A stretch of DNA of 64,000 bases, from assembly GCF_003334785.1 (NCBI RefSeq), contig NZ_QOWV01000016.1; one strand, 5' to 3'. Position 1 is the stretch's first letter, and each line of letters begins with the position of its first letter. Origin of the DNA: Escherichia coli (lineage in GTDB: Bacteria; Pseudomonadota; Gammaproteobacteria; Enterobacterales; Enterobacteriaceae). Below the pieces are notes generated by a model that saw only the letters and a program-made list of their open reading frames with translations, was not told where the DNA came from and made no database searches. A program made the position numbers and the translations under genes. Positions 1,164 through 43,367 of the stretch are shown in pieces.

Positions 1164-2555
1164 ATGACAACCGAAACGCGTTCCCTCTATAGTCAACTTC
1201 CGGCTATTGATCGCTTATTGCGCGATAGCTCCTTCCTTTCTTTGCGTGATACTTATGGTCACACCCGCGTGGTGGAATTGTTGCGTCAGATGCTCGACGA
1301 AGCGCGAGAAGTGATTCGTGGCAGCCAGACGCTGCCTGCGTGGTGTGAAAACTGGGCGCAAGAAGTCGATGCCCGGTTGACGAAAGAAGCGCAGAGCGCG
1401 CTGCGTCCGGTGATCAACCTGACGGGAACCGTGCTGCATACCAACCTTGGGCGAGCTTTACAGGCGGAAGCCGCGGTGGAAGCCGTTGCGCAGGCTATGC
1501 GTTCGCCAGTGACCCTCGAGTATGATCTGGACGACGCCGGACGCGGACATCGCGATCGGGCGCTGGCGCAGCTGCTGTGCCGTATTACGGGGGCGGAAGA
1601 TGCCTGTATCGTCAATAACAATGCGGCGGCGGTGTTATTGATGTTGGCGGCCACTGCCAGCGGAAAAGAGGTGGTGGTATCTCGCGGCGAACTGGTGGAG
1701 ATTGGCGGCGCGTTTCGTATTCCCGATGTTATGCGTCAGGCAGGCTGCACCCTACACGAAGTAGGGACCACCAACCGCACGCACGCGAATGATTATCGTC
1801 AGGCGGTGAATGAAAATACCGCACTGTTGATGAAAGTACATACCAGTAACTACAGCATTCAGGGGTTCACCAAAGCGATAGATGAAGCGGAACTGGTGGC
1901 GCTCGGCAAAGAGCTGGATGTTCCCGTAGTGACTGATTTAGGCAGTGGCTCGCTGGTCGATCTTAGCCAGTACGGTTTGCCGAAAGAGCCAATGCCGCAG
2001 GAGTTGATTGCGGCGGGCGTCAGTCTGGTGAGTTTCTCCGGCGACAAGTTGTTAGGCGGGCCGCAGGCAGGAATTATTGTTGGTAAAAAAGAGATGATCG
2101 CCCGCCTGCAAAGCCACCCGCTGAAGCGTGCATTACGCGCGGATAAAATGACCCTCGCGGCGCTGGAAGCCACGTTGCGTCTTTATTTACACCCTGAAGC
2201 TCTGAGTGAAAAATTACCGACCCTGCGCCTGCTTACCCGCAGCGCAGAGGTCATTCAAATCCAGGCACAACGTTTACAGGCCCCCCTTGCCGCACATTAC
2301 GGCGCGGAGTTTGCGGTACAGGTTATGCCATGTCTTTCGCAGATTGGCAGTGGTTCGCTGCCGGTTGATCGCCTGCCGAGCGCGGCATTAACGTTTACAC
2401 CCCATGATGGACGCGGTAGCCACCTTGAGTCATTAGCCGCCCGCTGGCGTGAATTGCCAGTGCCGGTGATTGGTCGTATTTATGACGGACGATTGTGGCT
2501 GGATTTACGCTGCCTTGAAGATGAGCAACGGTTTTTGGAGATGTTGTTGAAATGA
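1164..2555 (+). CDS. selA: L-seryl-tRNA(Sec) selenium transferase
   Basis: 463-aa ORF recognised as SelA; stop overlaps selB start (ATGA at 2552..2555). Confidence 0.95.
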
Positions 2556-4396
2556 TTATTGCGACTGCCGGACACGTTGACCACGGCAAAACAACCTTAT
2601 TGCAGGCGATTACTGGCGTAAATGCTGACCGTCTGCCGGAAGAAAAAAAGCGCGGCATGACCATCGATCTCGGCTATGCCTACTGGCCGCAGCCGGATGG
2701 TCGCGTGCCTGGTTTTATCGACGTTCCCGGTCATGAAAAGTTTCTTTCCAACATGCTGGCGGGCGTTGGTGGTATCGATCACGCGCTGTTGGTGGTGGCG
2801 TGCGATGACGGCGTGATGGCACAGACCCGTGAGCATCTGGCGATTTTGCAGCTGACCGGTAACCCGATGCTGACAGTGGCGCTGACCAAAGCCGATCGCG
2901 TGGACGAAGCGCGTGTTGATGAGGTTGAACGCCAGGTAAAGGAGGTTCTGCGGGAATACGGTTTTGCTGAGGCAAAACTGTTTATCACCGCAGCAACCGA
3001 AGGTCGGGGAATGGATGCCCTGCGCGAGCATCTGCTTCAGTTGCCGGAACGCGAGCACGCCAGCCAACATAGTTTCCGCCTCGCGATTGACCGCGCATTT
3101 ACCGTAAAAGGTGCCGGGCTGGTCGTCACCGGTACGGCGTTAAGCGGGGAAGTGAAGGTAGGCGATTCACTCTGGCTGACTGGTGTAAATAAACCGATGC
3201 GTGTACGTGCGCTGCATGCGCAAAACCAGCCAACAGAAACCGCCAATGCCGGGCAGCGTATCGCGCTTAACATCGCGGGTGATGCGGAAAAAGAGCAGAT
3301 TAACCGTGGCGACTGGCTGCTTGCCGATGTGCCGCCAGAGCCGTTCACACGGGTGATTGTCGAGCTTCAAACCCATACACCGCTGACCCAGTGGCAGCCG
3401 CTGCATATTCACCACGCCGCCAGCCACGTCACGGGACGCGTTTCACTGCTGGAAGATAACCTTGCTGAACTGGTCTTCGACACCCCGTTATGGCTGGCAG
3501 ATAACGACCGCCTGGTATTGCGCGATATCTCTGCCCGCAACACGCTGGCCGGAGCGCGCGTCGTGATGCTTAACCCGCCGCGTCGCGGTAAACGTAAGCC
3601 GGAATATCTGCAATGGCTGGCGTCTCTTGCACGGGCGCAGAGCGATGCCGATGCGTTATCTGTTCATCTGGAACGCGGCGCGGTTAACCTTGCGGATTTC
3701 GCCTGGGCGCGCCAGCTCAACGGCGAAGGGATGCGCGAATTGCTGCAACAGCCTGGTTATATTCAGGCTGGTTATAGCTTGTTGAATGCGCCGGTTGCCG
3801 CCCGCTGGCAGCGGAAAATTCTCGACACATTAGCGACTTATCATGAGCAACATCGCGATGAACCTGGCCCTGGGCGCGAACGTCTGCGACGTATGGCGTT
3901 GCCAATGGAAGATGAAGCGCTGGTACTGTTGCTGATTGAAAAGATGCGCGAAAGCGGCGACATCCACAGCCATCACGGCTGGCTGCATCTGCCAGATCAC
4001 AAAGCGGGCTTCAGCGAAGAGCAGCAGGCCATCTGGCAAAAAGCAGAGCCACTGTTTGGTGACGAACCGTGGTGGGTGCGTGACCTGGCAAAAGAGACGG
4101 GAACCGACGAGCAGGCAATGCGCCTGACTCTACGCCAGGCGGCGCAGCAAGGAATAATTACCGCGATCGTTAAAGATCGTTATTACCGTAACGATCGGAT
4201 TGTCGAGTTTGCCAATATGATCCGCGATCTCGATCAGGAGTGTGGTTCAACCTGCGCGGTGGATTTCCGCGATCGCTTAGGCGTAGGCCGAAAGCTGGCA
4301 ATTCAGATTCTGGAATATTTTGACCGCATTGGCTTTACGCGTCGTCGTGGAAATGATCATTTATTGCGCGACGCATTATTATTTCCGGAAAAATAA
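2552..4396 (+). CDS. selB: selenocysteine-specific translation elongation factor
   Basis: 614-aa ORF with N-terminal GTPase motifs [23 protein letters not shown]; translationally coupled to selA. Confidence 0.95.
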
Positions 4397-38014: not shown

Positions 38015-40084
38015 ATGTCTGAGAAAACTTTTCTGGTGGAAATCGGCACTGAAGAGCTGCCACCAAAAGCACTGCGCAGCCTGGCTGAGTCCTTTGCTGC
38101 GAACTTTACTGCGGAGCTGGATAACGCTGGCCTCGCACACGGCACCGTTCAATGGTTTGCTGCTCCGCGTCGTCTGGCGCTGAAAGTAGCTAACCTGGCG
38201 GAAGCGCAACCGGATCGTGAAATCGAAAAACGCGGCCCGGCGATTGCCCAGGCGTTCGACGCTGAAGGCAAACCGAGCAAAGCGGCAGAAGGTTGGGCGC
38301 GTGGTTGCGGTATTACCGTTGACCAGGCTGAGCGTCTGACTACCGATAAAGGCGAATGGCTGCTGTATCGCGCCCATGTGAAGGGCGAAAGCACCGAAGC
38401 ACTGCTGCCGAATATGGTTGCGACTTCTCTGGCGAAACTGCCGATCCCGAAACTGATGCGTTGGGGCGCAAGCGACGTGCACTTCGTGCGTCCGGTGCAC
38501 ACCGTGACCCTGCTGCTGGGCGACAAAGTCATTCCGGCAACCATTCTGGGCATTCAGTCCGATCGCGTGATTCGCGGCCACCGCTTTATGGGCGAGCCGG
38601 AATTCACCATCGATAACGCCGATCAGTATCCGGAAATTCTGCGTGAGCGTGGGAAAGTCATCGCCGATTACGAAGAACGTAAGGCGAAGATTAAAGCCGA
38701 TGCCGAAGAAGCAGCGCGTAAGATTGGCGGTAACGCTGACTTAAGCGAAAGCCTGCTGGAAGAAGTGGCTTCGCTGGTGGAGTGGCCGGTCGTTCTGACC
38801 GCAAAATTCGAAGAGAAATTCCTCGCGGTGCCGGCTGAAGCGCTGGTTTACACCATGAAAGGTGACCAGAAATACTTCCCGGTGTATGCGAACGACGGCA
38901 AACTGCTGCCGAACTTTATCTTCGTTGCCAACATCGAATCGAAAGATCCGCAGCAGATTATCTCCGGTAACGAGAAAGTCGTTCGTCCGCGTCTGGCGGA
39001 TGCCGAGTTCTTCTTCAACACCGACCGTAAAAAACGTCTTGAAGATAACCTGCCGCGCCTGCAAACCGTGTTGTTCCAGCAACAGTTGGGGACGCTGCGC
39101 GACAAAACTGACCGCATCCAGGCGCTGGCTGGCTGGATTGCTGAACAGATTGGCGCTGACGTTAACCACGCTACCCGTGCGGGTCTGCTGTCTAAGTGCG
39201 ACCTGATGACCAACATGGTCTTCGAGTTCACCGACACCCAGGGCGTTATGGGGATGCACTATGCGCGTCACGATGGCGAAGCGGAAGATGTCGCGGTGGC
39301 GCTGAATGAGCAGTATCAGCCGCGTTTTGCTGGTGATGACCTGCCGTCCAACCCAGTAGCTTGTGCGCTGGCGATTGCTGACAAGATGGATACCCTGGCG
39401 GGTATCTTCGGTATCGGTCAGCATCCGAAAGGCGACAAAGACCCGTTTGCGCTGCGTCGTGCCGCGCTTGGCGTGCTGCGAATTATCGTTGAGAAGAACC
39501 TCAACCTTGATCTGCAAACGCTGACCGAAGAAGCGGTGCGTCTGTATGGCGATAAGCTGACTAATGCCAACGTAGTTGATGATGTTATCGACTTTATGCT
39601 CGGTCGCTTCCGCGCCTGGTATCAGGACGAAGGTTATACCGTTGACACCATCCAGGCGGTACTGGCGCGTCGTCCGACTCGTCCGGCTGATTTCGATGCC
39701 CGTATGAAAGCGGTATCGCATTTCCGTACCCTGGATGCAGCTGCTGCACTGGCGGCGGCGAACAAACGTGTATCTAACATTCTGGCGAAATCTGACGAAG
39801 TGCTGAGCGACCGCGTGAATGCCTCTACCCTGAAAGAGCCGGAAGAAATTAAACTGGCGATGCAGGTTGTGGTGCTACGTGACAAGCTGGAGCCGTACTT
39901 TACGGAAGGTCGTTACCAGGATGCGCTGGTCGAACTGGCTGAGCTGCGTGAACCGGTTGATGCTTTCTTCGATAAAGTGATGGTCATGGTTGATGACAAA
40001 GAATTGCGTATCAACCGTCTGACCATGCTGGAGAAACTGCGCGAACTGTTCCTGCGCGTTGCGGATATTTCGCTGTTGCAATAA
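38015..40084 (+). CDS. glyS: glycine-tRNA ligase beta subunit
   Basis: 689-aa ORF recognised; 9-bp gap from glyQ. Confidence 0.95.
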
Positions 40085-40101
40085 TAACGCCGTTATTAAA
40101 T

Positions 40102-40128
40102 AGCCTGCCATCTGGCAGGCTTTTTTTA
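40102..40128 (+). terminator. rho-independent terminator of glyQS
   Basis: agcctgcca tct ggcaggct followed by TTTTTTT. Confidence 0.8.
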
Positions 40129-40362
40129 TCGCTAAATAATACAGCAACCTTTAATAATCTTCTGCTGAATAAAGATTATCTCATATATTAATTTTATGAG
40201 ATTTTTTTAGGATTATATCAAGGAGAAGAAACAAACTTATTAAGCTAGAATAGCCACGGGTGCTTGAGACTGTTTGTCTCAGGTATTCACCGAAAGGCAG
40301 ACAGAGAAAAGCCCCACCTGACTATAAATCAAAGTTTGTACTGACCCCAAAAAGTTGGACAG

Positions 40363-41214
40363 TTAAACACGAGGCATATAGGTCTGATTCCGATATTCAA
40401 TTGGAGTCAGACCTTTTAATTTCAGGCTAATTCTTCTGCTGTTGTAGTATTCAATATATTCCGTAACAGCATCCTTCAGTTCGCTTATATTACTGAACTC
40501 ATCAAGATAAAAACACTCCGACTTTAAGGTTCCAAAGAAACACTCCACCACAGCATTATCCAGACAATTGCCTTTTCTGGACATGCTTTGTTTAATACCA
40601 TGTTCTTTAAGGATATTTTGATATCTTCTCATACGATACTGCCATCCCTGGTCAGAGTGCAGAACAGGATGCTCGTGAGGATTAAGCTTTTTGAATGCCT
40701 GATCGAGCATATTCTCAACCATGTTCATCACTGGTCTTTCCGAAAGGCTGTAAGAAATAACTTCGTTGTTGAAGAGATCTATTACTGGAGACAAATACAG
40801 CTTGCGCCCATTGACTGCAAATTCAGTAACATCGGTAACCCACTTCTCGTTTGGCCGCGTAGCCTTGAAATCTCTTTGGAGAACATTAGGGGCGGTTTGC
40901 CCTACCTCTCCTCTGTAAGAGCGGTATCGCTTGACCTTAATCGCTGCTTTAAGTGAGAGGGTTCCCATCAGGCGCTGAACAGCTTTATGGTTAATCTGTT
41001 TCCCTTCTCGATGAAGAGACAGCGTTACCCTACGGTATCCGTATCGGCCTCTATTCTCGTGATAAATCTCACTAATACGCTTTTTAACGTCCGCATACTT
41101 GTCAGGCTTGCTGAGAGCCTTTAGATGATAATAAAACGTACTGCGCGGTATCTCCGCAGCCCTGAGAAGCTCATCAAGAGGATAAAACTGCCTTAGCTCG
41201 TTGAGTACTTTCAC
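40363..41214 (-). CDS. insK: IS150 transposase OrfB (DDE catalytic domain)
   Basis: 283-aa ORF recognised. Confidence 0.9.
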
Positions 41215-41732
41215 TTTTTCGTGGGATGAGCTAAGGCTTTCAGCTTTTTTAGATACATAAGCCGCGTTTCAAGAAATCGAACTTGCCTTTCAAGATCCTC
41301 AATGCGTCGGTCTTTTGACAGCTCCAATGCTGATGCCGCTTTTTCTGGATCAACTGATATTGCAATGTTTCTTTTGGTGCCAATCTTGAGCGCGCGTAAA
41401 CCAGCTTCTCCGCGCTCTTCATAGACCTTCAGCCACCTGGCTACAGAACCACTACCAGCAAGCATAAAGTGAGCAGCAGCCTGATTAAGGGACATGTGCT
41501 GCTCGATCACAGCTTTCACGACCTTAATACGCAACTCTGGATCAGCACTAACGCCTTTAGGTTTGGGAATTAAACCTTTTTCTCCATGTTTTTCATAGAG
41601 GGCAACCCATGTCCTGACCTGGGTTCGGGGGACACCAAAACGTGCCGAGATGATCCTGTAACCATCATCAGTTGTGAAGTAGTGATTCACGACTTCAAGG
41701 CGCTTTTCAAAAGGGTATTTTGGCTTTGACAT
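41211..41732 (-). CDS. insJ: IS150 OrfA (HTH DNA-binding)
   Basis: 173-aa ORF; ends ...[14 protein letters not shown] with the A AAA AAG frameshift heptamer at complement(41244..41250). Confidence 0.9.
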   Translation of the reverse strand: MSKPKYPFEKRLEVVNHYFTTDDGYRIISARFGVPRTQVRTWVALYEKHGEKGLIPKPKGVSADPELRIKVVKAVIEQHMSLNQAAAHFMLAGSGSVARWLKVYEERGEAGLRALKIGTKRNIAISVDPEKAASALELSKDRRIEDLERQVRFLETRLMYLKKLKALAHPTKK

Positions 41733-41811
41733 ATTAGGGGCTATTCCATTTCATCGTCCAACAAAATGGGTGCAGTACATACTCGTTGGAAATCAACACA
41801 GGAGGCTGGGA

Positions 41812-41964
41812 ATGCCGCAGAAATATAGATTACTTTCTTTAATAGTGATTTGTTTCACGCTTTTATTTTTCACCTGGATGATAAGAGATTCACTGTGTGA
41901 ATTGCATATTAAACAGGAGAGTTATGAGCTGGCGGCGTTTTTAGCCTGCAAATTGAAAGAGTAA
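41812..41964 (+). CDS. hokA: Hok-family type I toxin peptide (50 aa)
   Basis: MPQKYRLLSLIVICFTLLFFTWMIRDSLCELHIKQESYELAAFLACKLKE from ATG 41812 with SD aggagg 41800..41805; the overlapping mok-like frame (track ORF from 41770) begins inside the IS150 end. Confidence 0.85.
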   Translation: MPQKYRLLSLIVICFTLLFFTWMIRDSLCELHIKQESYELAAFLACKLKE

Positions 41965-42093
41965 GAGTCTTCGGCGGGAAATTATTCCCGCCTTACTTAC
42001 GGCGTTGCGCATTCTCATTGCACCCAAATTTATTCTTCACAAAAATAATAATAGATTTTATTACGCGATCGATTATTTATTTCCTGAAAACAA

Positions 42094-42123
42094 ATAAAAA
42101 AATCCCCGCCAAATGGCAGGGAT
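42094..42123 (-). terminator. rho-independent terminator of cspA
   Basis: On the minus strand, stem atccctgccatttggcggggat followed by a U7 run (plus-strand A-run 42095..42101). Confidence 0.8.
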
Positions 42124-42150
42124 CTTAGATTCTGTGCTTTTAAGCAGAGA

Positions 42151-42363
42151 TTACAGGCTGGTTACGTTACCAGCTGCCGGGCCTTTAGCGCCGCTTTCGA
42201 TGGTGAAGGACACTTTCTGACCTTCGTCCAGAGATTTGTAACCATCGTTCTGGATAGCAGAGAAGTGTACGAACACATCTTTAGAGCCATCGTCAGGAGT
42301 GATGAAGCCGAAGCCTTTGTCAGCGTTGAACCATTTTACGATACCAGCCATTTTACCGGACAT
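42151..42363 (-). CDS. cspA: major cold-shock protein
   Basis: [38 protein letters not shown]... 70 aa with RNP1/RNP2 motifs. Confidence 0.97.
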
Positions 42364-42505
42364 AGTGTATTACCTTTAATAATTAAGTGTGCCTTTCGGC
42401 GATATGGCGTGCTTTACAGATTTTGAAGCGTTAAAGGAATGTGCACTACGAGGGGTATCAACGATAACTCTTGAAGGGACTTGCCTTACTACACTGCTTT
42501 AATGG

Positions 42506-42559
42506 TCTGTACGTCAAACCGTTGATGTGCATTAAGCCACGCATTGGCGGGTGATGCAA
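42506..42559 (-). promoter_or_regulatory. cspA promoter (-35 TTGCAT, 17-bp spacer, -10 CTTAAT) and cold-box element at the start of the ~160-nt 5' UTR
   Basis: Minus-strand reading: ttgcat (complement 42554..42559), cttaat (complement 42531..42536), cold box tgacgtacaga (complement 42506..42516); AT-rich UP-like tract further upstream. Confidence 0.75.
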
Positions 42560-42643
42560 CAATTATTTTTCATATTTATGATTAATCGGTTGGAAAACGG
42601 TCCTGTCATCAGGACCGTAAACAGCAATAAAGTGGATAAAAGT

Positions 42644-42934
42644 CTATTCCATCAACTGCTTACTTAATGCCGGGTTGGCTTGAATCAAACGCATCAATTT
42701 TAGTTCGGCACTTGAAGGCTTCACGCGTCTGGATTCCCATTCCTTTACCATGGCGACTGATACGCCCAAAACCCGGGCGAAATCATCGATTTTTAATCCT
42801 GTCCCTTTTCGTAACTGCTCAATTTCGGTACAGGACGTTGTTCTGTGCGTCAGGGTAATTTTCTGCGTTTCATCTTTAAAAACAATCTGTTCCAGGCTGC
42901 TCAACAGCTCATGCATTGGATCTTTATATTCCAT
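42644..42934 (-). CDS. yiaG: XRE-family HTH transcriptional regulator
   Basis: 96-aa ORF with HTH GLKIDDFARVLGVSVAMVKEWESRR, recognised. Confidence 0.85.
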   Translation of the reverse strand: MEYKDPMHELLSSLEQIVFKDETQKITLTHRTTSCTEIEQLRKGTGLKIDDFARVLGVSVAMVKEWESRRVKPSSAELKLMRLIQANPALSKQLME

Positions 42935-43367
42935 TGAAAACTCCTCAAATCACACTGCGGGATCGTGAATTGCATCGAAGCTCATTAAGAATAGTCGGGA
43001 AAAGCAGACACAGCGGGGTGAAGTCAGGGCATGCTCTGGCTATGATTCGATTCAGCCTGTCATTTAGCGTGACTTATAGCCACCTAACGATCTGATAAAT
43101 GCCGATATATCTCTTACCACTCCTGTTTTGTAAAGATTTCGAAAATCTAACCTTCTGCGAAGGCGTAAATCTCTGGCTACAAAAAAGGCAACGGCACTAT
43201 CATTTTTTAACAATGAAACAACAAATTAACCTTGTTTCATTTTCTCCATGATTTTACCAGGAAGATTACGTAGAAAGGGTATCCTGCAAGCCTGTCCTGG
43301 ACTATCCTTGTCACGTCAGACACGCGTGTGTCGTTGTGCGCTTTTTTTGGGTGAAAGGAGTAAGAAA

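Follow-up and report, generated by a model that had tools for sequence, protein, structure and literature searches.

The hokA locus and its IS150 element

The window, i.e., the whole stretch of 64,000 nt of Escherichia coli DNA that was analyzed, carries a chromosomal toxin gene next to an insertion sequence. The gene order in 39800..42400 starts with the end of glyS (stop codon at 40084) and its terminator, followed by a 250-bp AT-rich spacer, a 1443-bp element with two overlapping minus-strand ORFs, a 32-nt spacer, the hokA ORF on the plus strand and, beyond it, cspA (42151..42363, minus strand). The alignment of 3.5 kb of this region (39612..43112) with the reverse complement of positions 3719300-3722800 of the MG1655 genome (NC_000913.3) revealed one differing base, and the MG1655 arrangement hokA/mokA′/sokA′ plus IS150 (insJ/insK, b3557/b3558), with every feature annotated, is identical to the window throughout the locus. 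This is the chromosomal type I toxin-antitoxin locus hokA/mokA/sokA in the form of its K-12 allele.

The curated MG1655 annotation, when mapped to the window, gives hokA (b4455) at 41812..41964 (plus strand); the mokA pseudogene (b4647), an upstream in-frame extension of hokA, at 41780..41964 (plus strand); the sokA pseudogene (b4614), which comprises the 3′ 35 nt of the antisense antitoxin RNA, at 40301..40335 (minus strand); and IS150, as a mobile_genetic_element feature with identical ends, at 40337..41779 (minus strand). The 23-codon small ORF ysaE (b4793), annotated in MG1655 and located at 41941..42012 on the minus strand, is antisense to the 3′ end of hokA; it lies downstream of cspA and does not belong to the toxin-antitoxin system. 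The curated K-12 annotation and the 1999 literature already describe the locus with its IS150 and with mokA and sokA as pseudogenes, so that this is an ordinary, known feature, of little importance beyond bookkeeping.

The sole difference from MG1655 in the 3.5 kb falls in codon 6 of cspA (window 42348, minus strand), where ACT is changed to GCT (CspA Thr6Ala). A search with the 80 nt around 42348 matched 5,423 complete E. coli genomes, and in none of them did the base of the window occur, all best hits having one mismatch (98.8% identity). Possible origins are a mutation private to a lab strain, an introduced change or an error of sequencing.

The hokA ORF has 153 nt (50 codons plus the stop). 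In a profile search its product matched the whole Pfam model HOK_GEF (PF01848, positions 1-42 of 42) with E=1.6e-21, a score by which a chance ORF was rejected, and it corresponds to the RefSeq protein WP_001135732.1, ‘type I toxin-antitoxin system toxin HokA’. A Shine-Dalgarno sequence AGGAGG is directly readable at 41800..41805 (plus strand), 6 nt before the ATG. The original prediction of an intact 50-codon Hok frame with a good Shine-Dalgarno is thus confirmed, with a correction concerning its distance to the end of IS150, given as 33 bp, which is actually 32 nt up to the ATG. In the folds of the intact mRNA and of the K-12 remnant alike, the Shine-Dalgarno is predicted to pair with GCUGGCGGCG..AGCCUG within the ORF. 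The MG1655 HokA coding sequence has been used as the known-toxic control in an overexpression assay (bioRxiv 10.1101/2025.08.07.668861), and on the strength of that control the HokA peptide itself is reported to be functional. Among the sampled genomes with the K-12 allele (H22-H30) the hokA ORF is 100% conserved, which could reflect recency or some retained use. From a practical point of view, the K-12 hokA ORF supplies a toxic peptide cleanly, without its cognate antitoxin.

IS150 was expected to be complete, with 1443 bp, and it is so: it has exactly that length from 40337 to 41779, its ends coincide with those of the MG1655 feature, and direct alignment of the ends shows imperfect terminal inverted repeats beginning with TGTACTG. 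A repeat search based on 9-nt seeds reported no inverted repeats at these ends because they are imperfect. According to the ORF list, insK (40363..41214) and insJ (41211..41732) overlap on the minus strand, and the reading of the sequence shows a slippery site AAAAAAG (A AAA AAG) at 41244..41250 on that coding strand; RefSeq labels an identical IS150 copy as ‘programmed frameshift’. The length of 1443 bp, the TGTACTG ends and the two overlapping transposase ORFs with a frameshift site are traits of IS150, an element of the IS3 family whose two ORFs are joined by a programmed −1 frameshift. A single IS150 copy was counted for K-12 in a genome comparison (PMC3032704). The comparison of the junctions revealed no target-site duplication around IS150, as the flanks ..CAAAGTT and TACTCG.. 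share no repeat. The absence of a duplication speaks for a secondary rearrangement of the K-12 allele rather than for another element. The left junction also holds an orphan T (40336) that belongs neither to IS150 nor to the intact locus, which has a G there, and that stays outside the MG1655 features too.

The hok mRNA leader and the 39 nt missing from the K-12 allele

A 78-nt fragment of the 5′ leader of hokA mRNA was found at 40258..40335 (plus strand) with the Rfam model RF01794. It contains the tac box GGGTGCTTGAGA (40258..40269, plus strand), the first hairpin and the region complementary to the 3′ part of SokA, and no base of it differs from the corresponding stretch of the IS-free strain HH97 (100% identity). 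The match to RF01794 extends in the window over 40258..40397 with 70.1 bits (gathering score 59); the alignment is good only for 40258..40336 and then decays within IS150, model positions 1 to about 85 being well aligned, which amounts to half a leader. In an IS-free relative (L001, 774..925) the same model gave 119.3 bits and aligned end to end (model positions 1-157). The claim that the native leader lies across IS150 from the toxin gene is borne out by the score of 70 bits on the far flank versus 119 bits in the uninterrupted relative. Despite its name, ‘sok antitoxin’, RF01794 gave its matches on the hokA-sense strand and ends with the three letters of the hok AUG; what it represents in practice is the leader of hok mRNA as far as this AUG, not the antisense RNA.

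The putative −10 box of the hokA/mokA promoter, TAGAAT (40246..40251, plus strand), was located by homology only: it lies 7 nt before the conserved 5′ end GGGTGCTTGAG and aligns with TATGAT of an R1-type hok locus. With a threshold of 9/12 in a sigma-70 consensus scan, neither the hokA nor the sokA promoter passed, the former because its −35 is poor. On the other side of IS150, the 3′ hairpin of hok mRNA (GGCGGGAAATTATTCCCGCC, 41973..41992, plus strand) is predicted in the folds and aligns with the R1-type hairpin GGCGGGCGCAGGCCCGCC, and it is followed by the fbi box (TCTCATTGCACCC, 42013..42025, plus strand), the 3′ partner of the 5′ tac box. The fold of the reconstructed intact mRNA (L001, 774..1140) had a minimum free energy of −137.6 kcal/mol (z=−8.6), with the 5′ GGGUGC.UGAGA paired to the 3′ UCUCA..GCACCC, as expected for the tac-fbi closure of hok mRNAs. 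In the window, both boxes are present, but about 1.75 kb, including a terminator-like hairpin, lie between them.

Removal of IS150 in silico yielded a joined-flank query of 623 nt, which was searched against 5,426 complete E. coli genomes. All 5,426 were matched; 2,831 had one place that covered 80% or more of the query, i.e., there was no large insertion. In the uninterrupted genomes, the 623-nt query spans 661-665 bp in two pieces. Strain HH97, with flanks 100% identical to those of the window, displays GAGGCCCCTCTATGCATAGACACCATAAGGTTAGCCTCT (39 nt) between the positions equivalent to 40335 and 41780, where the window has the T of 40336 and IS150. So, the event in K-12 is an insertion of IS150 plus a loss of 39 nt, without target duplication; it is no clean split. 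The joining of the flanks, which had been proposed as a check, largely rebuilds a hok/mok/sok locus, but with 39 nt missing and the T of 40336 in excess; on the HH97 alignment, the in silico removal of IS150 does not restore the locus.

The 39 nt form a hairpin that carries, on one strand, the ribosome-binding site and the ATG of mokA and, on the other strand, the −10 box, the start site and the 5′ end of sokA. The sense strand reads GAGG-N7-ATG, the ATG being in frame and 60 nt (20 codons) upstream of hokA, while in R1-type mok/hok the mok start is in frame 19 codons upstream. The antisense strand of the intact hokA locus reads TTGATT-17 nt-TAACCT-7 nt-TCTATGCATAGAGGGGCCTCACTTTG, colinear with the R1-type sok promoter TTGCGC-17 nt-TATCCT. 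The window lacks the −10 box (TAACCT) and the start site, as well as about 22 nt at the 5′ end of SokA. The remnant of sokA on the hokA side consists only of the −35 box (TTGATT, 41791..41796, minus strand, assigned by homology with the R1-type locus only) and 11 nt of the spacer, and the last 35 nt of SokA are across IS150, at 40301..40335, where they align with the 3′ part of the R1-type Sok region. Of mokA, only the in-frame tail 41780..41964 persists, its Shine-Dalgarno (GAGG) and ATG being gone.

Consequently, the mok frame of the window is devoid of a ribosome-binding site and start codon of its own, and in place of an antisense Sok gene with its promoter there are remnants on opposite sides of IS150. 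Since the mokA start and the −10 box and 5′ end of sokA were within the missing 39 nt, the translational activator and the antitoxin gene are both destroyed. A hybrid sokA promoter that would use the end of IS150 was rejected, as no −10-like hexamer was seen by eye at the needed spacing. The original prediction had noted a mok-like frame starting in the IS end: the frame is indeed open up to a GTG at 41770, but there is no Shine-Dalgarno there and the true mokA ATG is absent.

It is useful to compare these features with the hok/mok/sok system of plasmid R1, a type I toxin-antitoxin with post-segregational killing. R1 and hokA have in common the Hok/Gef toxin, the 5′ tac box, the GGCAGA..AGCCCC block, the GAGGC..TAGCCTCTTAC hairpin and the 3′ hairpin, and the intact hokA locus shares with R1 also the in-frame upstream mok, the antisense −35/17 nt/−10 layout and the 5′-3′ closure. 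The K-12 hokA locus differs from R1 in that an IS of 1443 bp interrupts it and in that it has lost the hairpin with the mok start and with the sok −10 box and 5′ end. For the intact hokA locus of E. coli C, the statement in bioRxiv 10.1101/2025.08.07.668861 that cites Pedersen and Gerdes (1999) is that no post-segregational killing occurs.

IS150 alleles at hokA across E. coli

The alleles of the locus were counted with junction-specific queries in the 5,426 complete E. coli genomes. Besides the 2,831 genomes with the uninterrupted locus found with the joined-flank query, the K-12 right junction (IS end followed by TACTCG, 39 nt lost) was present in 1,663 and the left junction in the K-12 orientation in 1,644. 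An IS150 in the opposite orientation, as in strain 98203, occurred in 904 genomes, inserted after CAAAGTG with AAGTG repeated and the hairpin retained; this IS150 differs from the K-12 copy at 17 positions. The allele type of strain NR3838, with the K-12 orientation, an AAG duplication and the hairpin retained, was found in 95 genomes. These counts are approximate and slightly overlapping, since they add up (2831 + 1663 + 904 + 95) to 5493 versus 5426 genomes.

The junctions are at 40334..40336 and 41780 in the window (K-12 type), at 1509..1520 and 2955..2965 in a locus with AAGTG repeated (L004), and at 1934..1942 and 3378..3390 in that of NR3838 with the AAG duplication (L006). At least three allele types thus have IS150 within about 2 bp of one point in the hokA leader, and together they make up roughly 48% of the 5,426 genomes. 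The presence of IS150 at one spot in about half of the E. coli genomes provides a natural example of a chromosomal type I toxin-antitoxin locus repeatedly disabled. The three junction types, at the foot of the same hairpin, indicate either a hotspot or repeated selection. A possible, rather tentative reading is that the foot of the hairpin with the mok start and the Sok target is a recurrent, perhaps structure-directed landing site of IS150, and that the K-12 allele then lost exactly the hairpin. If this were true, it would mean that IS150 chooses this hairpin as a target or that there has been repeated selection for silencing hokA/sokA. A study of E. coli and Klebsiella found hok/sok genes close to insertion hotspots of mobile elements (bioRxiv 10.1101/527788), with which the recurrent IS150 site agrees in general terms. 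The three alleles at hokA, in this precise form, were not found described in the literature searched.

Concerning the route to the loss of the hairpin, IS150 causes adjacent deletions by a second nearby insertion followed by recombination, and in the long-term evolution experiment the rbs deletions reportedly arose via IS150. Two nearby IS150 insertions and recombination between them are therefore a plausible route to the K-12 allele. The reverse order of events, in which the hairpin would have been deleted first (CAAAGT|TACTCG) and IS150 would have landed later in the scar, seems improbable. It would explain the orphan T as a 1-bp duplication, but the duplications made by IS150 at the same site in other lineages are of 3 to 5 bp, and no IS-free allele without the hairpin appeared among the best matches sampled.

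Two individual genomes showed additional changes. In the NR3838 locus (L006, about 3440..3456), one A is missing between the hokA Shine-Dalgarno and the ATG, with GGCTGGGATG instead of GGCTGGGAATG, so that the mokA frame is out of register with hokA in that IS150-bearing lineage. In NZ_CP103718.1 (H21, 199810..200864), 91% of the joined flanks were matched in three pieces over about 1.05 kb, with a ‘yidD’ annotation beneath, which suggests a different small insertion at the hokA locus.

Expression state of hokA in the K-12 allele

The consequence of the insertion is that the hokA promoter and the tac box are now 1.5 kb away from the hokA ORF. What is left on the far side of IS150 is the 78-nt piece of leader with the putative promoter; the near side retains a promoterless hokA, together with the tail of mokA, the fbi box and the 3′ hairpin. 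A pattern scan revealed a terminator-like hairpin of 15 pairs followed by the T-rich tract TTTAATTT at 40380..40414 (plus strand), and the fold of 40258..40425 had a free energy of −60.4 kcal/mol (z=−6.3). This hairpin is inside the insK-proximal end of IS150, oriented against transcription that enters from outside, and faces the old hokA promoter. A transcript from this promoter would enter IS150 in the antisense direction, meet the hairpin and probably end there. In addition, translational coupling through mokA would be impossible because the mokA start is gone. As to the hokA side, in the predicted fold of the remnant RNA (41780..42030) the hokA Shine-Dalgarno and AUG stay paired in a helix, both strands of which are downstream of IS150.

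On these grounds, we consider it very probable that K-12 hokA/mokA/sokA is a relic disabled by the replacement of the 39-nt leader hairpin by IS150, with a hokA gene that is intact but most likely silent because the hairpin would block the transcript, the coupling to mokA is lost, and the Shine-Dalgarno and AUG are predicted to be sequestered. The silence of hokA is deduced from the sequence and from the predicted structure. Toxin and antitoxin would both be disabled in the K-12 allele. The uncoupling of hokA from its normal control, as originally predicted, is supported by the loss of the mokA start and by the location of the leader across IS150.

An alternative is that hokA is a live, deregulated toxin gene, transcribed by read-through or from a cryptic promoter at the end of IS150 and translated from AGGAGG or from the GTG at 41770. 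The ORF is intact and has a consensus Shine-Dalgarno, the in-frame ORF is open from that GTG within the IS150 end, the peptide is reported as toxic on expression (bioRxiv 10.1101/2025.08.07.668861), and the antisense repressor is lost. However, an outward promoter at the hokA-proximal end of IS150 was rejected, as no promoter-like site facing hokA was found there in the consensus scan; no Shine-Dalgarno precedes the GTG; and, in the predicted fold of the remnant RNA, the Shine-Dalgarno and AUG of hokA are paired. Furthermore, about 1,660 genomes carry the K-12 allele without a working sokA, which argues against any appreciable synthesis of toxin and fits with a silent one: a dead antitoxin gene would be tolerable only if the toxin were not made. 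It seems thus very unlikely that hokA is live, and the evidence points to a silent rather than a deregulated gene.

Even less credible, and in fact refuted by the HH97 alignment, is the view that IS150 simply inserted into an otherwise complete hok/mok/sok locus, such that its removal would restore function: both flanks are 100% identical to the IS-free locus and simple insertions with direct repeats occur at this site in other lineages (AAGTG in L004, AAG in L006), but the window misses the 39 nt, has no target duplication and contains one extra T, and the lost piece holds the mokA start and the −10 box and start of sokA. The repair of K-12 hokA would need the 39 nt to be restored as well as IS150 to be removed.

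There are other IS-disrupted chromosomal hok loci in K-12: hokC and hokE carry IS186, the element at hokA being IS150. The original prediction had referred to a reported inactivation of K-12 chromosomal hok loci by IS elements, and this is found both in the MG1655 annotation and in the passage of PMC2654758 that, citing Pedersen and Gerdes (1999), describes the five K-12 hok loci as inactivated by IS elements, point mutation or rearrangement.
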